A stretch of 64,000 bases of DNA. It comes from a virus. Under the pieces are notes generated by a model. It was not told the origin of the DNA. It searched no databases and was given only the letters and a program-made list of their open reading frames with translations. Made by a program: the position numbers and the translations under genes. Below are positions 1 to 8,807 of the stretch, piece after piece; the first letter of the stretch is position 1, and every line of letters starts with the position of its first letter. The DNA lies in IMG/VR virus record IMGVR_UViG_3300031977_001585, positions 1 through 64,000 of that record; one strand, 5' to 3'.

Positions 1-3000
1 CGTGTTGATGTGCGAGTGTACTCACCAGTAAAGTTACCAGCAAAGTCACCAGCAAAACCACGTGCATAGTTACCTACGAAGTCACCAGCAAAACCACGAG
101 AGTAGTTACCGATGAAGTTACCAGCAAAGTTAGTTACTCGATCTCTAGTGAAGTCACCAACGTAGTTGGTTACACGAGTACGAGCATATGCTGAACTACG
201 GCTTCTGGTTGAAGTACGTGTGCTGTTACGTGTGTATTCACCAATGAAGTTACCTGCGAAGTTTGTTACACGGTTACGTGTGAAGTCACCAACATAGTTA
301 GTGATACGAGTACGTGCATAAGCAGAGTAACGTACACGAGTTGAAGTACGGACACTGTTACGAGTGTAGTTGCCTACAAAGTTACCAGCAAAGTTTGTAA
401 CACGGTTACGAGTAAAGTCACCAACGTAGTTAGTGATGCGAGTACGTGCGTATGCTGAATAACGAGTACGGGTTGAAGTGCGAGTAGATGTACGTGCGTA
501 GTTTCCTACGTAATCACCTGTGTAGTAACCAGTACGTACGTAGTTTCCTACGAAGTCACCTGCATAGTAACCAGTACGTGTGTAGTAACCAGTGTTGGTT
601 GACGTACGGGTTGACGTACGAGCATAGTTGCCTTCATAAGAAGCACCACGAGTACGTGCATAGTTACCTTCATAAGAAGCACCACGAGTACGTGAGTAGT
701 CACCGACATATGATGCGGCACGAGTACGTGTGTATGCTACTGTACCTACGTAATCACCAGCAAAGTTACCAACGTAGTTTCCGGTGTAGGATGCACCACG
801 ACTACGAGTGTATGCTACGTTACGGGTATAGTTGGTTGCACGAGTACGTTGATAGTTTACGGTACCTACGTAATCACCAGCAAAGTTACCTACGTAATCA
901 CCAGTATAAGTTGCGGCACGGTTACGAGTATAGTTTTGTGACCACTCACCAATGAAGTCACCTGTGAAGTCACCTGCGTAGTTTGCAGTACCGACGAAGT
1001 TACCAGTATAACTTGAAGTTCCTGTCCATGATAGACCATATCTCCATTCCGCACCATATGATACACGGAATGTACCTCTTGAATACCATACACCGTTCTT
1101 CTGTACAGAAGTTGTACCTGAAGTACCAGAAGCAAATCCAACATATACTCCGTCAGCATAGAGCATGATACCTTGCATCTCGTAGTCATATACCCACTGG
1201 GTGACGTTTGCAACGTATACGTCAGTGTTGGTCTGAGTGCCAGTAGAGGTACGTGTTGACGTAACTGAACGAGAATAGTTGACAATTGAGTTACGAGTCG
1301 AGTTAGTAGCACCACCACGTGAGTAGTCACCTGTATAGGATGCCGCACGACTACGAGTGTAGTTAGTTGCACGAGTACGAGTAAAGTTGGTCTGACGTGT
1401 GTAATCACCTAAGAAGTTACCAGTGTATCCTACTGTACGAGAGTAGTTACCAGTATAGGTGGCTGCACGTGTACGAGTATAATCTGTTGCACGAGTACGA
1501 GTAAAGTTGGTCTGACGTGTGTAGTTACCGACATACGATGCCGCACGAGTACGTGCATAGTTACCGACATACGATGCCGCACGGTTACGTGCATAGTTAC
1601 CAACATACGATGCGGCACGAGTACGTGCATAGTTACCTACGAAGTCACCTGCGTAGTATAAAGTACGAGTATATGCTAGTACACGAGTCGATGTACGTGT
1701 TGACGTACGAGTGTAATCTAGTACACGAGTCGACGTACGTACAGAGGTACGTGCGTAGTTGCCTACAAAGTCACCTGCGTAGTTGCCAGCAAACCCACGT
1801 GCGTAGTTACCAACAAAATCTCCGGTAAACGTAGTAGCATAGTTGCCTACGAAATCACCAGCAAAGTTAGTTACACGATCACGGGTATAGTTACCAGTAA
1901 AGTCACCTGTATAGTTTCCTGTGAATCCACGTGCGTAGTTACCTACGAAGTCACCAGTAAAGGTTGTCGCATAGTTACCTACGAAGTCTCCCGCAAAGTT
2001 AGTGACACGATCACGAGCATAGTTACCAATGAAGTCACCAGCAAAGTTGCCAGCAAACGCACGTGCATAGTTACCAACAAAATCTCCAACGAAATCACGG
2101 GCATAGTTGCCAATGAAGTTGCCAGCATAGTTGGTTACACGATCACGAGTATATGCTGAGTAACGAGTACGTGTTGACGTACGAGCATAAGCACTGTAAC
2201 GAGTACGAGTAGATGTACGTGTTGATACACGAGCATAGTTACCGACATAGTTGCCAGCAAACCCACGTGAGTAGTTGCCTACAAAGTTACGTGCATAGTT
2301 ACCTTGGAAACTGCGTGAGTAGTTACCAACGAAGTTACCAGCAAAGTTTGTAACACGGTTACGAGTATATGATGATACACGAACACGTGAGTAGATGCCA
2401 GCAAAGTTAGTGACACGATCACGAGTGTAGTTAGTTACACGAGTGCGGACGTAGTTATCAGAATAAGCAGAAACACGAGTACGAGTGTAAGTGCCTGCGT
2501 ATGCTGAAACACGGTTACGTGAATAAGTACCTGCGTATGCAGAGACACGGTTACGTGAGTAAGTTCCTGCATAGGTACCAGTATAAGACGACACACGAGT
2601 ACGAGTGTAGTTAGCAGAGTATGCAGAACTACGTGTACGTGAGTATGTGCCTGAGTAAGATGATACACGACCACGAGTGTACGAAGATGCACGGCTGCGT
2701 GAGAATGTACCAGTAAAGTTTGTTACACGGTTACGAGTGTATGTTGATACACGTGCTCGTGTATAAGTTCCAGCAAAGTATCCAGTGAATGCTGTTAGAC
2801 GTGTACGTGAGTAAGTCGACGTACGAGTCCTTGAGTAAACACCTGAGTATGCAGAACCACGAGTACGAGAATAGTTACCCTCGAAACCACGTGTGTAGTT
2901 TCCTGTGAAGTCACGTGAGTATGTGCCCGTGTAATCACCTACGAAAGTACGTGAGAAAGTATTGACACTATTACGTGTATATGAGGAAACACGATTTCTT

Positions 3001-3845
3001 GAGTAAGCAGAAACACGAGTTGTTACATACGATGATGGGCGTGTGCGAGTATAACTCTGATCCACGATCGTACGACGTGTGTTTGTTGCTGAACCCTTTG
3101 CCATCCAAGTACCTGCAGATGTAGGTACACCTTGTGTATCAGAACGTAATTGATACGAACCGATAGCACCAGCAGTGGCACGTAGAGTTTTTGCACGTTG
3201 ACCAAGTGTGTACTTGATCTGTGCGTCTGTCATTTCTTTAAATCCGTCGACAGAAGAACCATCATAGACAGTTGCAACTGGACGAACAACATCATAAGTA
3301 GTTGCACTTAATGATGTCTTTTTCCAAATATGGTAGTTTACAGTAGTGCCGTCTCCATGAGTATCTGTAAATACATTCTCAATATGGATACTCCAATCTA
3401 AGCCTGGAGATGTTTGAGATAGACGGAAGGATCCTTGATATTCTAATCCCGCAACGTCTTTCATGACACGTTCTGTAAGTAGGTCTAAGTCCCCGTCGTT
3501 CATTTCATAGAAACCAGGGTTAGGCCCCACGTCATAGTATCCTACTGGACGGGCAAAATCTGCACCGGACTCATCTGCTGATCCACCCACTTGCTTAAGA
3601 GCAGTAGTTGTTGTGGTACCAGTGATCTGAGATGCAGGGTGTGTCCCTGCTGGTTCGTTGTAGTACGTATCTACGAAGGAACCAATATTCACACTTCCGG
3701 TTAAACTGATATTACCGATATCACTAGCAGTGGCCTCTGCTAATGCTTCTCCAACCTTAATGGCAAGATATGCTTCTTCTGCCGGTTGGAATTCCTGTAG
3801 GTCACCATCATTAATGATTTTTAGTGGTATACTAGATGCTGACAC
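1..3845 (-). CDS. Giant stalk-and-knob repeat protein (>1281 aa, 3' end beyond the window); probable virion fibre
   Basis: Not in the ORF track because it runs off the window. GTG at 3845 gives MSASSIPLKIINDGDLQEF..., and the same frame still reads ...FAGNFTGEYTRTST at position 3. Late promoter at 3896-3903. Globular N-terminus (~3845-3060), then [FY]xG[ND]/YxRx/SxRx/Rx[STA]x tetrapeptide repeats around a central non-repetitive domain (~1020-1235). Confidence 0.9.
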   Translation of the reverse strand, partial: MSASSIPLKIINDGDLQEFQPAEEAYLAIKVGEALAEATASDIGNISLTGSVNIGSFVDTYYNEPAGTHPASQITGTTTTTALKQVGGSADESGADFARPVGYYDVGPNPGFYEMNDGDLDLLTERVMKDVAGLEYQGSFRLSQTSPGLDWSIHIENVFTDTHGDGTTVNYHIWKKTSLSATTYDVVRPVATVYDGSSVDGFKEMTDAQIKYTLGQRAKTLRATAGAIGSYQLRSDTQGVPTSAGTWMAKGSATNTRRTIVDQSYTRTRPSSYVTTRVSAYSRNRVSSYTRNSVNTFSRTFVGDYTGTYSRDFTGNYTRGFEGNYSRTRGSAYSGVYSRTRTSTYSRTRLTAFTGYFAGTYTRARVSTYTRNRVTNFTGTFSRSRASSYTRGRVSSYSGTYSRTRSSAYSANYTRTRVSSYTGTYAGTYSRNRVSAYAGTYSRNRVSAYAGTYTRTRVSAYSDNYVRTRVTNYTRDRVTNFAGIYSRVRVSSYTRNRVTNFAGNFVGNYSRSFQGNYARNFVGNYSRGFAGNYVGNYARVSTRTSTRTRYSAYARTSTRTRYSAYTRDRVTNYAGNFIGNYARDFVGDFVGNYARAFAGNFAGDFIGNYARDRVTNFAGDFVGNYATTFTGDFVGNYARGFTGNYTGDFTGNYTRDRVTNFAGDFVGNYATTFTGDFVGNYARGFAGNYAGDFVGNYARTSVRTSTRVLDYTRTSTRTSTRVLAYTRTLYYAGDFVGNYARTRAASYVGNYARNRAASYVGNYARTRAASYVGNYTRQTNFTRTRATDYTRTRAATYTGNYSRTVGYTGNFLGDYTRQTNFTRTRATNYTRSRAASYTGDYSRGGATNSTRNSIVNYSRSVTSTRTSTGTQTNTDVYVANVTQWVYDYEMQGIMLYADGVYVGFASGTSGTTSVQKNGVWYSRGTFRVSYGAEWRYGLSWTGTSSYTGNFVGTANYAGDFTGDFIGEWSQNYTRNRAATYTGDYVGNFAGDYVGTVNYQRTRATNYTRNVAYTRSRGASYTGNYVGNFAGDYVGTVAYTRTRAASYVGDYSRTRGASYEGNYARTRGASYEGNYARTSTRTSTNTGYYTRTGYYAGDFVGNYVRTGYYTGDYVGNYARTSTRTSTRTRYSAYARTRITNYVGDFTRNRVTNFAGNFVGNYTRNSVRTSTRVRYSAYARTRITNYVGDFTRNRVTNFAGNFIGEYTRNSTRTSTRSRSSAYARTRVTNYVGDFTRDRVTNFAGNFIGNYSRGFAGDFVGNYARGFAGDFAGNFTGEYTRTST

Positions 3846-3922: not shown

Positions 3923-4402
3923 TTAACTTTTTTGAGGCCAGACCACTTCCTGTACAGAAGTAACACCATCTAGGTGGTCGGTGATATCTCTTAACTGCTG
4001 CCGGTAGTTTCTCCATGACTGCAACTCTTGCTCAGATAGAGGAGCATCAAGTGCTTGAGTCCAGTCACAAGCAGTGAGTAATTGGTCTCGAATCATACGA
4101 ACATCTCTAACCAAATCTTCGTGGTTCCATGTCCAATCTAAAGACTCGAAGTTCCACGTTGCATGCTTGTTTGGTGGTAACCCTGTGAATTTAAAGGTTT
4201 TTGTTGATGCATCAAACCAGTGATAATCCATGAAGTAGGACAAGTCACTGCATCCTGCAGGAAGACTATCCTCATGAACATAGATAATACGTTGAGAACC
4301 ATCGGGAGTAAACCCCTCTGAATCAATCTTCACTTGCGGAAGAGAGATCCTTTCTAGTCTTCCTGTCTGCGTATTAGCATATACAACATAGCATAATTTC
4401 AT
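3923..4402 (-). CDS. Tail fibre assembly chaperone
   Basis: C-terminal RDQLLTACDWTQALDAPL...WRNYRQQLRDIT...VVWPQK motif typical of phage tail assembly chaperones; directly follows a fibre gene. Confidence 0.85.
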   Translation of the reverse strand: MKLCYVVYANTQTGRLERISLPQVKIDSEGFTPDGSQRIIYVHEDSLPAGCSDLSYFMDYHWFDASTKTFKFTGLPPNKHATWNFESLDWTWNHEDLVRDVRMIRDQLLTACDWTQALDAPLSEQELQSWRNYRQQLRDITDHLDGVTSVQEVVWPQKS

Positions 4403-4403
4403 T

Positions 4404-7400
4404 TTAACTTCTCGTTACTTGATAATAGGTCATAATAGGTCCACCAGAGTAGTCTGTCTCGATGTAATTTCCACGAGTATATGTGAATCCACCAGTTGTT
4501 ATTGTAGTATCATTTTCACTCTGACCTGATAGTGGTTCAGAAAAATACACTTCAGTCCCATTCCATCGAATCTGTATCGTCACAAGATCTTCACCTTCTG
4601 GACTAGGAACAAGTGATACTCTCCACCAAGTGCCAGAGTTAGACGTATCTGTCGTCTGAGGTGGTGGTTCTGAGTTGACATCTGACGAAGTAGGTGCTAC
4701 CGAAACCGGAGTAGTTACCAAATAACTACCTGCTGTGATCCATTGACTACCATTGAACACTTTTATATCATAGGTATATGATGTCCCATTAGGTGGGATC
4801 TCATTTACCGTGAAGTTATTTAGACCACTTGTTACTGTAACATCTGTTAAAATGAGAGCATTATCACGATAAACTCTCAACGACACAGGAGTAGACCCCT
4901 CTGTCAAATGTGTTACTGACAGTTGATGTGTTGTGTCATTTTCCGGATGCACTATTCGATTAGAGGTTGTGGCAAAAATACCCGAATCATTATCATATAA
5001 CGTGAACTCTTTCTCCGCAAGAACCTCAACGTTGCTACTACCCATTGGTTCGTTGATACTGGAAGTGTCATTCCCAGTACGTAACTGTGCCCTGAAGGTT
5101 TCTCCTTGCCATCCCATTTCTCCAACACCGGCTGATACTGTACTGGTTCGTGTATAGTTGCCTATGAACTCACCCGTATAATACGTCTTGGCACCATCGG
5201 AGTATGAAGAGGTTCTAGTTCTTATAAAGTCTCTAGTTGAGGTTCTAGTAGAATTCCTTGTCGATGGTACATAATTCGCATAGTTCCCCAAGTAACTTGG
5301 TGTCCTCACATAACTGCGTGAATCTGTAAAGTCACGTGTATAGTTACCTGTAAAGTTACCAGTGTACTCTCCAATAAAGGACAACACCCTACTGAAAGCA
5401 GTGACTCTTATATCGGTTCGAGAACTAACACGTGTGTAGTAAGAGATCGGATATCTACTATATGAGTCTACAATGTTGCGACTATAATTACCTTCGTAGT
5501 TACCTTCATACGATGGAGATCTGCTATACGTTCCTGTATAGTCACCTATGAAATCTCCAACAAATGATCTCTGATAGTTGCCCTCAAAATTACCACCGAA
5601 GTCTCGATTATAGTTTCCGGTGAATGTACCAGCATAGGAGAACACGGACTCTCGTACACGAGTTGACGTACGACTAGACGTTCGTTGATAGTTAACCGCA
5701 TGATTCTCTACACTACCTTCTATGATGACTTGTCGAGTAGACGCACCTACATAATCTCCCGTATAGATGCGAGTATAAATTCCAGTTCTCTCATAGTTAC
5801 CCGTATACTGACCAGCAAAGTTTCTGTTATAAGTTCCTGTGTATTCCGATACAAATCCTCTTTCATAATTGCCTAAGAAACCTGGTGTGTATGTGCTAAC
5901 TCGGTTTTTAAGATATGTGCTGTATCTGGTAACAACCCTTCCACTTGTCTTGGTTGATATTCGAGAGTTCTCTCCCACGAAATTACGTGTATAATATCCA
6001 AATATCTCGACCATACCACCCGCATCGGGATCGAATATAAATCGACTAGAAACTTTTGTGACGTTGCCGACAAAGGATCGAGTGTAATTTCCAAAATAAC
6101 TTCTACTATAGTCCCCATTATAAGCACGACCATAATTACCAATATAGGTAAGAGTACCTGTATATGAAGAGACTCTATTTCTAGTAGAACTACCTCCCAC
6201 CGATCTAATCCGTTGATAGTTACCTATAAAGTCTCGGGTATAATTGCCTACAAAGTTTTGACTAGCAGTTGGTGTGCTTGTACTGGTGTTTTCTGCTATT
6301 TTATAATCTTCAACAAATGTAGTGGCAGTTTGAAGTGTCCCTCTATGATAATATTTACCTCCTACAGGACCGACAATGGATGATACTCTTGCATCAGCCA
6401 TACTATCGTATGCACTACTGGTGTAAACGAGTGTTCCATTGTAGTATAATTGAATAAAGTATTCGTACGTAATATCTCCTCTACCGTCACCAAATCCACC
6501 TTCTACGAATCGAGCAAGTCTCCATACGTATTGAGGATTACCATTAGTGATAGAATATAAGAACGGATCAGACCCACTACCACTGACTCTGGTTCGTTCG
6601 TAGGTAGAGGTTCTAGTTCTCTCGTAGTTGCCTTCGTACGAAGCATTTCCCGTAAAATTACCCACAAACGTACGAGAGTAAGTTGAGGTTCTTGAGTAGT
6701 TCCCCTCAAAGTTGCGAGAGTAATTACCGACAAACGTACGAGAGTATCCCCCTTCATATGACTCGACACGTGTACGTGTATAGTCTACCAGATTTGCGTA
6801 CGAAGACGTTCTGGTTCGAGCAAACTCACCAGTATAAGTAATCGTTCTGGTGTAGTTACCTACGAAACCACGTTGATAGTTACCAACAAACGTTCGGGTG
6901 CTCTCTGTCCCACCCCTAGTTCGAGTGTATGCGGAGATTCGAGTTCGAGCATAAGTTCCGTCGTATGTGGACAGTCTTGCTCTCGTTGAGATTCTTTGAT
7001 ACGGCACTTGTCGGGTAGATGTTATCGAGTATCGATAACGGCCATAATTTACCTGTGGAACGTAATCCCCTATGAAGTTGCCCAGAAAATTTCCAGTGTA
7101 GGTTAGAGTTCGAGTAAAGTCGAATGGTCTTTGTCTTTGATAAGACGATACTCGTGTTCGACTTGATACTCGATTATACGCAGAAAGTCTCGTGCGTGTA
7201 GACGTACGAGTAAATGTCTTCGACGTTGACAACTCTGGTATTCGAGTTCTAGTGTAATTACCAGCGTAGTTAGACGGACGGTTTCGTTGATACGTCTCGG
7301 TATATGTACCTGGTCTATAGGTTATCTCAAGTCTACCTTCTGGGTCATTCGGTATAGGATTCCAGTTGTAGTAGATGGTGCCCGTATAAAATCTTGAGTA

Positions 7401-8807
7401 GTTACCCTCGAATGATAACCCGTCTGAGTAATTACGTTCGAATGTACTCGTACGTGTACTATTCCTTGTCGACAGTCGAGTGTATAGACCTTCATAGTCA
7501 ACTGTTCTTACATAGTCACCCGTGTACCCTATTGTCCTTGTGCTTGTTCTAGTATAAGTGCTAAGACGGGTATAGTCTCCGGTAAAGTCTCCGGTATAGT
7601 ACCCTATTGTATTACCAATAAAGTCACGGTTGAATCCTGTTGCAATATCAACGATTGACTGTCTGGTAAACGACCCTGTTCTTTCAATGGTTACATTATA
7701 TGATGTAGTGTCATTATAAGAGACAAACGTTGCTGTATGCGCAGACCCCGTAAATGTAGAAAAGTTTGCAGTAAAGTCTTTCTGTGCTACACCGTCTGAC
7801 CCTGAGAGTCTGAATAATTTAACGTGATAATTGTTAGGTTCGTTAGTCGTTGCTATTAGACTAATCGATTGTCCTTCAATTATATTATCGACACTAGAGA
7901 ATTGCAATGCTCCCTGTAGACTAGATTCCTCTTCGTTTTGTTGACTAGTTCCTGAAGAAGACCCTTCTAGTTTGGCCGCAAACAATGCGTTCAGGTTCCT
8001 GAAGTTTTGATATATTTCTTGTAGACCTGACTCATCATAGTTAATTAAGATAGAGTCGTAATACCGAACCTGTGTAGTGCTGAACCCCAGTCCGTACAGA
8101 TTAGTTGTAATTTGGTTGTCTTGAAAAGCACCACTAATAGCACCGGATAAAGACCATTCAATATTAATATAGCATCCAGCACTATGATTTAAAAACGGGT
8201 TGCCTAAGACGGTCCAGTTCTGACTTGGTGGTAGATAGGTTTCAATATTAAAAATATTATTGGTGATAAGTGCTCTGGAATCAAAAGCAATTCTACCCTG
8301 TGATGTCTTTATCTGTAGACCATATTCATCGTCGTTTAACGCAGATGAATTTTCTATAATCTCTGCTGTCTCACGGACAATAAAGTAGTCCATGTCCACA
8401 TCCCAATCAGCAGTCACATAGGTCTGGTTTAAATATCCACCATTGGTAAGTCCACGACCTTTGAATCTGTAGGTATTGCTTAGTGCATCACTTGCCGTTC
8501 GTGCTAGGAAAAACACTTCAGGGTTTGAGATAGTAACGTCTTGCGTAGTCCCATTAAAATTGGTAATTGCGTCGGGTACAACTATTGGACCAAATCCGGT
8601 TCCAGTTAAATCTGGATTGTATCCGGTTGCGGTTGGACGTTTTACAAAGACAAAGTCTTCTTTGGTGAGTTCGGAATCTAAGGTAAACGAATGCCCACGA
8701 CCTGCTGCTACAACTCTGTAGTTAAGAAGATCGAGAGTAGTATCGGCAATAATGAAATTGTTACCGTTGCCGTCATTGCCTTGTACCTTTAGACCGTAGG
8801 TCATCAT
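4404..8807 (-). CDS. 1467-aa fibre-like protein with a mirror-repeat stalk inserted in a Calx-beta-like domain
   Basis: N-terminal YGL[KQ].....G...FDS motifs; the same tetrapeptide repeats as the 1-3845 ORF; central and C-terminal copies of a ~70-aa aromatic domain; flanked by chaperone genes. Confidence 0.85.
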   Translation of the reverse strand: MMTYGLKVQGNDGNGNNFIIADTTLDLLNYRVVAAGRGHSFTLDSELTKEDFVFVKRPTATGYNPDLTGTGFGPIVVPDAITNFNGTTQDVTISNPEVFFLARTASDALSNTYRFKGRGLTNGGYLNQTYVTADWDVDMDYFIVRETAEIIENSSALNDDEYGLQIKTSQGRIAFDSRALITNNIFNIETYLPPSQNWTVLGNPFLNHSAGCYINIEWSLSGAISGAFQDNQITTNLYGLGFSTTQVRYYDSILINYDESGLQEIYQNFRNLNALFAAKLEGSSSGTSQQNEEESSLQGALQFSSVDNIIEGQSISLIATTNEPNNYHVKLFRLSGSDGVAQKDFTANFSTFTGSAHTATFVSYNDTTSYNVTIERTGSFTRQSIVDIATGFNRDFIGNTIGYYTGDFTGDYTRLSTYTRTSTRTIGYTGDYVRTVDYEGLYTRLSTRNSTRTSTFERNYSDGLSFEGNYSRFYTGTIYYNWNPIPNDPEGRLEITYRPGTYTETYQRNRPSNYAGNYTRTRIPELSTSKTFTRTSTRTRLSAYNRVSSRTRVSSYQRQRPFDFTRTLTYTGNFLGNFIGDYVPQVNYGRYRYSITSTRQVPYQRISTRARLSTYDGTYARTRISAYTRTRGGTESTRTFVGNYQRGFVGNYTRTITYTGEFARTRTSSYANLVDYTRTRVESYEGGYSRTFVGNYSRNFEGNYSRTSTYSRTFVGNFTGNASYEGNYERTRTSTYERTRVSGSGSDPFLYSITNGNPQYVWRLARFVEGGFGDGRGDITYEYFIQLYYNGTLVYTSSAYDSMADARVSSIVGPVGGKYYHRGTLQTATTFVEDYKIAENTSTSTPTASQNFVGNYTRDFIGNYQRIRSVGGSSTRNRVSSYTGTLTYIGNYGRAYNGDYSRSYFGNYTRSFVGNVTKVSSRFIFDPDAGGMVEIFGYYTRNFVGENSRISTKTSGRVVTRYSTYLKNRVSTYTPGFLGNYERGFVSEYTGTYNRNFAGQYTGNYERTGIYTRIYTGDYVGASTRQVIIEGSVENHAVNYQRTSSRTSTRVRESVFSYAGTFTGNYNRDFGGNFEGNYQRSFVGDFIGDYTGTYSRSPSYEGNYEGNYSRNIVDSYSRYPISYYTRVSSRTDIRVTAFSRVLSFIGEYTGNFTGNYTRDFTDSRSYVRTPSYLGNYANYVPSTRNSTRTSTRDFIRTRTSSYSDGAKTYYTGEFIGNYTRTSTVSAGVGEMGWQGETFRAQLRTGNDTSSINEPMGSSNVEVLAEKEFTLYDNDSGIFATTSNRIVHPENDTTHQLSVTHLTEGSTPVSLRVYRDNALILTDVTVTSGLNNFTVNEIPPNGTSYTYDIKVFNGSQWITAGSYLVTTPVSVAPTSSDVNSEPPPQTTDTSNSGTWWRVSLVPSPEGEDLVTIQIRWNGTEVYFSEPLSGQSENDTTITTGGFTYTRGNYIETDYSGGPIMTYYQVTRS

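Follow-up and report, generated by a model that had tools for sequence, protein, structure and literature searches.

Analysis was carried out on a 64,000-nt window of viral DNA (IMG/VR record IMGVR_UViG_3300031977_001585, positions 1 to 64,000), assigned to an uncultured T4-like phage. At its left end lies a minus-strand ORF with a GTG start and 1281 codons, cut by the contig end, which encodes a predicted fibre protein consisting of an N-terminal domain, an up-arm, a ~80-aa knob and a down-arm (Table 1). The contig starts at window base 1 and does not wrap round, and its other end does not continue the ORF. The ORF lies in the tail module, after a gene for a tail fibre assembly chaperone and downstream of baseplate wedge genes. 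The chaperone (159 aa) matched Pfam PF16778 above its gathering score (58.6 bits against a cut-off of 26.6; E 5.7e-16) and PHROG 4912, tail fibre assembly (E 2e-16). In contrast, the fibre protein itself matched no Pfam family at E<=0.1, no PHROG, and no PDB chain at E<=1 by phmmer.

Table 1. Features at the left end of the window
Coordinates	Strand	Residues	Feature	Description
3..3845	-	1-1281	Predicted fibre ORF	Cut by the contig end
3066..3845	-	1-260	N-terminal domain	Conserved anchoring domain of the family
1248..3065	-	261-866	Up-arm	4-residue units of R-type (YxRx, RxSx) and G-type ([FY]xG[ND]); the outer 270 residues have no partner inside the window
1011..1247	-	~866/867-945	Knob	Non-repeat, hypervariable tip domain at the turn of the hairpin
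3..1010	-	946-1281	Down-arm	Pairs with up-arm residues 532-865
96-526 against 1744-2140			Direct super-repeats	3x132 nt, at mirror positions
681-920 against 1317-1529			Direct super-repeats	2x120 nt, at mirror positions
582-766 against 1479-1663			Direct super-repeats	3x36 nt, at mirror positions
3923..4402	-		Upstream gene	Tail fibre assembly chaperone
4404..8807	-		Second repeat protein	1467 aa; same repeat vocabulary and central knob (~residues 755-840) on a different N- and C-terminal scaffold

Mirror register of the two arms

A preliminary description of this locus, made from the sequence alone, had claimed that the two arms are complementary along one constant antiparallel register running from the knob to the window edge, and this observation is confirmed. 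All ten residue pairs that it gave as examples are correct, with codon-left coordinates summing to 2253 being equivalent to residues i+j=1811 (0-based). To determine whether this register is unique, we scanned 583 mirror registers for mutual information, using a reduced alphabet and 300 pairs each, and found one peak, at 1811 (0.935 bit against 0.26 +/- 0.14), with shoulders at 1810-1813. Further, a pair matrix learned only from 36 other family members scored register 1811 at 294, while the next register scored 131 and the mean was 16 +/- 18. The scoring segment, residues 531-864, runs gap-free for 334 pairs up to the window edge, and the centre of the register falls in the knob. A motif-density mask, intended to measure arm lengths without a matrix, was too crude and was dropped.

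To exclude the possibility that the mirror order merely reflects the DNA, we looked for inverted repeats and found none of 30 nt or more in 1-3845, in agreement with the preliminary description, whereas direct super-repeats of the same period and copy number occupy mirror positions on the two arms (Table 1). The claim that even the two-residue interruptions match requires a nuance, since they fall in the same 14-residue Tyr-to-Tyr intervals on both arms but not exactly opposite each other. Similarly, while the block-level mirror is certain, the residue-level register could be c or c+2, because a strong shoulder occurs at +2, so that direct cross-strand pairing at exactly c is not proven. The arms are complementary rather than identical, with R facing G, F, S or Y, Y facing Y, and N/D facing T, V or A. 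Over 3492 pairs, R-R occurred 3 times against 61 expected, N-N 0 times against 24.5, and Y-Y 305 times against 56. The second repeat protein, encoded upstream, had its best register centre, 810, in its knob, but the score was modest as its arms carry bulges.

Complete relatives and predicted models

Since the window copy is truncated, the outer stalk was inferred from a complete orthologue found in IMG/VR (L003, 1595 aa, 84% identical). The preliminary description had predicted that the missing end would complement the outer up-arm, and L003 indeed has 290 more residues, about 265 of repeats plus a 25-residue conserved tail, which pair gap-free with it. In this protein one gap-free register covers 600 pairs, from the N-domain to the knob (score 567, next 212). 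Nine further complete relatives of 850-2101 aa each showed a single register, with c-L = 240-245. Moreover, in 28 of 104 complete family members of 420-1300 aa the best register sat at exactly the same offset from two conserved anchors (aN+aC-7), although the scoring matrix was learned from the inner stalk of the window protein only. Matrix-free, APC-corrected mutual information among 67 non-redundant homologues peaked on the same antidiagonal, at 0.061 against a shuffled maximum of 0.023. The three arm indels between the window protein and L003 (16, 12 and 10 aa) each have a same-size partner at the mirror position, and identity between the two proteins falls symmetrically from 95% at the base (the N-domain) through 92 and 83% to 28% at the knob, then returns to 83% on the way back. 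L003 ends in ...TDTYTLYVRVA, to be compared with the conserved family motif ETYTLYVRxA, while the window copy is cut before its end. The N-domain of the window protein matched 348 representative clusters at E<=1e-3, 139 of them at E<=1e-30.

An uncharacterised 3347-aa protein of Phage C48C1 (WJE88074; OQ984149, Kyanoviridae), annotated only as a hypothetical protein, is a true homologue, with 53% identity over residues 251-1281, the same synteny after a tail assembly chaperone, the same N-domain, a homologous knob (the knob of the window protein is 48% identical to its first knob) and the same C-terminal motif. It contains a 406-pair gap-free mirror block, but is twice as long, and its down-arm is interrupted by five or six globular insertions that have no counterpart in the up-arm. 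In contrast, weak tblastn hits to the 'structural protein' of Synechococcus phage S-RIM2 represent a different VTGN repeat without a mirror, and 'tentaclins' (PMC10743442) are unrelated C-lectin/Ig proteins. The ESM Atlas returned only hypothetical viral clusters, with a poor model of its own.

To examine the predicted structure, window residues 701-1112 were modelled with AF2 without an alignment, giving an unusable model (pLDDT 29). AF2 was then applied, with 74 sequences, to an 818-aa homologue (P0011), and was confident only for the N-domain (pLDDT >90), the stalk base and the C-end, with the arms at pLDDT about 30. In this model long strands at 265-299 and 780-816 were predicted at high confidence, and the N-domain and C-terminal strand form one unit. 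A Foldseek search of the PDB with the whole P0011 model gave nothing meaningful, and VIA-align gave only weak MABP / MACPF-P2-like matches for the N-domain (Z 5.6-6.9), too weak to name a fold.

Interpretation as a probable fold-back fibre

Cumulatively, our findings suggest, with a probability of about 85%, that the ORF encodes the first 1281 residues of a roughly 1600-residue fibre protein of a T4-like myovirus. In this view, the chain leaves the conserved anchoring domain, runs outward for about 600 residues as an extended strand of 4-residue units, forms the variable knob, returns antiparallel beside itself in one gap-free register, and ends in a conserved C-terminal strand (...ETYTLYVRxA) that docks back onto the N-domain. 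The heterotypic pairing rule, under which Arg almost never faces Arg, would set the register, so that the order of R-type and G-type blocks acts as a bar code allowing only one alignment of two highly repetitive arms. The knob would be the distal, host-specific tip, and stalk length would change by matched insertions on both arms. The analysis itself demonstrates the mirror complementarity, the equal arms, the compensating indels, the covariation and, in a model, the closure of the N- and C-ends, whereas the beta conformation, a length of about 200 nm and receptor binding are inferences, as is the presence of the protein in virions, for which we have no evidence. No experimental or confident predicted structure of the arms exists, and the fold-back topology is inferred from sequence, not from a structure. 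The arms carry about 14% Arg against 4.4% Asp+Glu with a pairing that does not neutralise the Arg, which is unusual for a stable isolated ribbon.

The interpretation offered by the preliminary description is therefore only partly supported. Antiparallel fold-back around a central knob in one constant register, complementary arms, the predicted continuation and the knob as the variable tip all hold, but that the stalk is a single two-stranded ribbon is not shown, since our data do not tell it from a bundle of hairpins. The claim that no described phage fibre is built this way was overstated, because the needle domain of the T4 long tail fibre tip (gp37 residues ~811-1026) is a six-stranded antiparallel fold-back structure with the receptor-binding head at the turn (PMC9659904, citing Bartual et al. 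2010). Its structure is PDB 2XGF. As inferred here for the window protein, both ends of the gp37 chain lie at the proximal side, and gp37 likewise belongs to a T4-like phage fibre and depends on a chaperone. The two nevertheless differ in that there is no sequence match, that HxH iron sites are absent here (0 His among the 942 arm residues), that the arms are about 600 residues instead of about 70, the gp37 structure being about ten times shorter, and that a heterotypic R/G/Y pairing rule operates with compensating indels. The design is known only in miniature, from the tip of the T4 tail fibre, and literature searches, which cannot prove that none exists, found no description of this family or of this design.

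We lean towards a trimer of hairpins, a giant version of the six-stranded gp37 needle, which we consider about as likely as not. In such a bundle the small polar or aliphatic face (T, V, A, N, D) would point inward and the Tyr/Arg face outward. Tail fibres are as a rule trimers (PMC12143355), a fibre assembly chaperone gene lies directly upstream, and AF2 as a monomer cannot model the arms although the pairing signal is strong, as is common for obligate oligomeric fibres. The second coupling, at register +2, could represent the neighbour in trans, but a diagonal contact in a twisted two-stranded ribbon also explains it, and conditional mutual information could not separate the two. The preference for a trimer rests on no measurement of oligomeric state, and the gp37 hallmarks (His residues in the arms, sequence similarity) are absent.

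A lone two-stranded beta ribbon, in which one chain alone forms a hairpin of roughly 200 nm with Tyr-Tyr pairs, and Arg lying over Gly, stabilising one face, remains possible but less likely. Two strands fully account for the pairing rule, short family members have only a tight turn and no knob (P0166, 436 aa), and the C-terminal strand docks on the N-domain of the same chain in the AF2 model. However, a two-stranded ribbon of hundreds of residues without a core has no precedent known to us, both faces would be exposed although one is lined with Tyr/Phe, and AF2, which usually draws long monomeric hairpins readily, did not do so here. If such a stalk does exist, which we regard as tentative, it would be a new class of protein architecture, an autonomous strand-against-strand 'stem' hundreds of residues long whose register is fixed by a readable heterotypic residue code (R:G/F/S, Y:Y, N/D:T/V/A), which evolves by compensating changes and paired insertions much as an RNA helix does, and whose Tyr/Arg-lined, strongly cationic surface may itself bind anionic cell-surface polymers along its whole length.

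Pairing in trans, with the up-arm of one chain against the down-arm of another in a swapped dimer or head-to-tail polymer, is improbable. Although sequence complementarity alone cannot tell cis from trans, equal arm lengths anchored at both ends and the closure of the N- and C-ends in one model chain fit cis pairing or a closed symmetric bundle, and an open polymer would not need the arms of one chain to be equal. That the mirror order is a structurally meaningless by-product of repeat duplication or chance in a solenoid or disordered low-complexity region is contradicted by the evidence, since, although one small vocabulary of 4-residue units with many direct repeats raises background similarity in many registers, duplication gives direct and not mirror order, there is no inverted DNA repeat, and the sharp register, the recurring anchor offset in 28 proteins of different length, the compensating indels and the covariation exceeding all shuffles all speak against it.

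Related designs and significance

Two further systems share elements of this design. In the streptococcal antigen I/II adhesins (SpaP, SspB; reportedly described by Larson et al. 2010), one chain folds back and two different but complementary repeat arms zip into a long stalk with both ends together at the base and a binding domain, the V domain, at the apex. That stalk, however, pairs an A-region alpha-helix with a P-region polyproline (PPII) helix, is about 50 nm long, and belongs to a bacterial surface protein with unrelated repeats. In antiparallel coiled-coil hairpins such as the SMC/Rad50 arms, the two arms of one chain pair over hundreds of residues with interruptions matched at mirror positions, but these are helical heptad repeats, not 4-residue strand units, with an unrelated function.

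If our reading holds, this family of hundreds of marine phage proteins shows that a very long, thin fibre can be built from a single fold-back chain, that a simple pairing rule sets its register, and that its length is tuned by matched insertions on both arms, which would be a beta-strand counterpart of antiparallel coiled-coil arms. The rule is explicit enough to be tested, and perhaps used to design rigid protein rods of chosen length. Our reading would also put the host-recognition domain in the middle of the gene rather than at its end, which changes how receptor-binding domains should be looked for in T4-like marine phages.

Mirror register of the two arms

The window begins at base 1 of a 78.5-kb contig, and the minus-strand ORF that carries the repeats starts at a GTG and runs off the contig after 1281 codons, with no continuation at the other contig end. 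The encoded protein consists of a non-repeat N-domain, an up-arm, a non-repeat knob and a down-arm, the arms being built from 4-residue units of two kinds, an R-type (YxRx or RxSx) and a G-type ([FY]xG[ND]). Ten amino acids make up 97% of the 942 arm residues, and His, Cys, Lys and Met are absent from them. Several ORFs of 60-170 codons overlap the repeat gene in other frames, but these are most likely shadows of its periodic codon pattern rather than genes.

Coordinates of the repeat gene, its parts and repeats, and of the other loci considered
Feature	Record	Position (strand)	Residues
Repeat ORF, cut by the contig end	window	3..3845 (-)	1281 codons
N-domain	window		1-260
Up-arm	window		261-866
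Knob	window		~867-945
Down-arm	window		946-1281
Arms	window	3-3065 (-)	
Direct super-repeat, 3x132 nt	window	96-526 against 1744-2140	
Direct super-repeat, 2x120 nt	window	681-920 against 1317-1529	
Direct super-repeat, 3x36 nt	window	582-766 against 1479-1663	
Overlapping ORF	window	488-955 (+)	
Overlapping ORF	window	983-1168 (+)	
Overlapping ORF	window	1517-1828 (+)	
Overlapping ORF	window	890-1408 (-)	
Second repeat protein	window	4404-8807 (-)	1467 aa; knob ~755-840
C48C1 homologue	Phage C48C1, OQ984149	7273-17316	3347 aa
Annotated structural protein	Synechococcus phage S-RIM2, HQ317290	89992-95730	1912 aa

The preliminary description had claimed that the two arms pair residue by residue in one constant register, with codon coordinates summing to 2253, and gave ten pairs as examples. 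All ten pairs are right, and the sum of 2253 equals residues i+j=1811. To examine how unusual this register is, we scanned 583 mirror registers by mutual information and found a single peak at 1811 (0.935 bit against 0.26 +/- 0.14), with shoulders at 1810-1813. To avoid circularity, a pair matrix was learned from 36 other family members, and it puts 1811 at 294, the next register at 131 and the mean at 16 +/- 18, the scoring segment running from residue 531 to 864, which is up to the window edge. The exact residue register nevertheless has a strong shoulder at +2: a second coupling at this offset is clearly stronger than that at -2, both in the window protein (registers 1811 and 1813) and in the family covariation (antidiagonals -7 and -5), and could be a diagonal contact of a twisted ribbon or a neighbouring strand of another chain. 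At the DNA level there is no inverted repeat of 30 nt or more, whereas the direct super-repeats lie at mirror positions with equal period and copy number. The observation thus holds and lies far beyond chance.

Complete relatives and evolutionary signals

To recover the missing end, IMG/VR was scanned with the N-domain, which found 26 loci, one of which (L003) encodes a complete 1595-aa protein that is 84% identical to the window protein. It has 290 residues beyond the point where the window copy stops, mostly G-type units, followed by the conserved tail ...TDTYTLYVRVA. In L003 one gap-free register (i+j=1835) covers 600 pairs, from residue 260 just after the N-domain to residue 859 at the knob, and scores 567 against 212 for the next register. 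A failure of the sequence beyond the contig end to continue the mirror had been set beforehand as a condition that would refute the description, and the finding passes this test in the orthologue. Further, nine other complete relatives of 850 to 2101 residues each show one register, with c-L (register sum minus protein length) between 240 and 245, and the two arms are therefore equal whatever the total length.

In the wider family the N-domain matches 348 representative clusters at 50% identity, whose proteins are about 340 to 2500 residues long and nearly all end in ETYTLYVRxA. We defined two anchors, aN as the end of the motif W..G[TS]A[TS][ND]T and aC as the start of Y[TS]L[YW]V[RK]. Although each protein has more than a thousand possible registers, and although the scoring matrix came only from the inner stalk of the window protein, the best mirror register is exactly aN+aC-7 in 28 of 104 complete proteins of 420-1300 residues. 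A matrix-free test gives the same answer: APC-corrected mutual information between the first 70 up-arm columns and the last 70 down-arm columns of 67 non-redundant homologues peaks on that same antidiagonal, with a value of 0.061 against a maximum of 0.023 over 20 shuffles that re-pair the arms between proteins. Some complete family members, such as P0166 (436 aa), P0155 (404 aa) and P0192 (420 aa), have only 70-80 pairs and no knob at all, just a tight turn.

Between the window protein and L003 there are three indels in the arms, of 16, 12 and 10 residues, and each has a partner of the same size at the mirror position on the other arm. Net arm-length changes are equal or within one residue in seven of ten orthologue pairs, while in the others the alignment of repeats splits the gaps differently. 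Identity to L003 is 95% in the N-domain, 92% in the outer up-arm, 83% in the inner up-arm, 28% in the knob and 83% in the down-arm, which is the usual base-to-tip gradient of a phage fibre, but folded around the middle of the gene.

Pairing rule, structure prediction and genomic context

To derive the pairing rule, we tabulated 3492 pairs from eight proteins. Residues alternate between two faces, one carrying Tyr/Phe, Arg, Gly and Ser and the other Thr, Val, Ala, Asn and Asp. R-type blocks cannot face R-type blocks, and the order of blocks therefore works as a bar code that permits one register only; the next-best registers are offset by one 44-residue super-repeat and score about a third.

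Residues faced across the mirror register, 3492 pairs from eight proteins
Residue	Faces
Arg	Gly 46%, Phe 25%, Ser 15%, Tyr 10%
Tyr	Tyr 69%
Asn/Asp	Thr, Val, Ala or Ser

Observed and expected numbers of selected pairs in the same eight proteins
Pair	Observed	Expected
R-R	3	61
N-N	0	24.5
Y-Y	305	56

Structure prediction with AF2 without an alignment failed on the knob plus arms. With a 74-sequence alignment, the 818-aa homologue P0011 gave a confident N-domain and a confident C-terminal end, with two long strands, 265-299 and 780-816, at the stalk base, and the structural aligner treats residues 44..818 as one domain once the low-confidence arms are trimmed. The model thus brings the two chain ends together, as the fold-back reading requires, although the arms themselves stay at pLDDT about 30 and the register is not confirmed by the model.

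The window encodes T4-type baseplate proteins, and its nearest record is Phage C48C1 of the Kyanoviridae, with 47% identity in the gp6-like wedge protein. A tail fibre assembly chaperone gene lies directly upstream of the repeat gene, and C48C1 has the same arrangement, followed by a homologue that contains a 406-pair gap-free mirror block and a base block. All of the five or six extra globular domains of this homologue are inserted in the down-arm only and are skipped by the mirror alignment, yet the repeat residues of the down-arm (about 1090) still equal those of the up-arm (about 1040), which suggests a stalk decorated with side domains. The second repeat protein of the window carries the same R-type and G-type units around a central knob, but has a different N-terminus (MTYGLKV...) and a long non-repeat C-terminal part; its best mirror register centres on the knob, although the arms have several bulges. 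Homologues of this second class (MSYGL... start) also appeared in the search with the first protein. In contrast, the annotated structural protein of Synechococcus phage S-RIM2, which gave weak tblastn hits through a run of VTGN/LTGN tetrapeptides, shows no mirror order and is unrelated.

The fold-back fibre reading

Cumulatively, the best reading of these data is a fold-back fibre, in which the N-domain and the C-terminal strand form the proximal anchor, the paired arms form the stalk, and the knob is the distal, host-specific tip. The mirror register, the equal arms, the matched indels and the covariation are established from sequence, and the meeting of the chain ends is seen in a predicted model, whereas the strand conformation of the arms and the role of the knob in host recognition are inferred, as is the length of the stalk, which at 0.33 nm per residue would be about 200 nm if the strands are straight. 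The preliminary interpretation, a single two-stranded antiparallel ribbon, is supported in part, namely in its fold-back topology, the complementarity of its arms and the variable knob at the tip. With regard to the number of chains in the stalk, we consider a bundle of three hairpins about as likely as not, since it would match the only known precedent, the six-stranded needle of the T4 tail fibre protein gp37 (PMC9659904), and would also fit the general rule that fibres are trimers (PMC12143355) and the failure of monomer modelling. A lone two-stranded ribbon explains the code and also fits the short members that have only a tight turn, but we regard it as the less likely, if still possible, arrangement.

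The family has no Pfam, PHROG or PDB relative, no source gives it a name, and literature searches found no description of it. It shares its topology with the gp37 needle, but neither sequence similarity to the needle nor its HxH motifs were found. In principle it resembles the complementary-arm stalks of streptococcal antigen I/II and the antiparallel coiled-coil arms of SMC proteins, and what is new are the code, the scale and the compensating indels.

The arms are strongly cationic, with 14% Arg against 4.4% Asp+Glu, Arg is never paired with an acidic residue, and one face is lined with Tyr/Phe and Arg, a make-up typical of carbohydrate-binding surfaces. The stalk itself might stick to anionic surface polymers.
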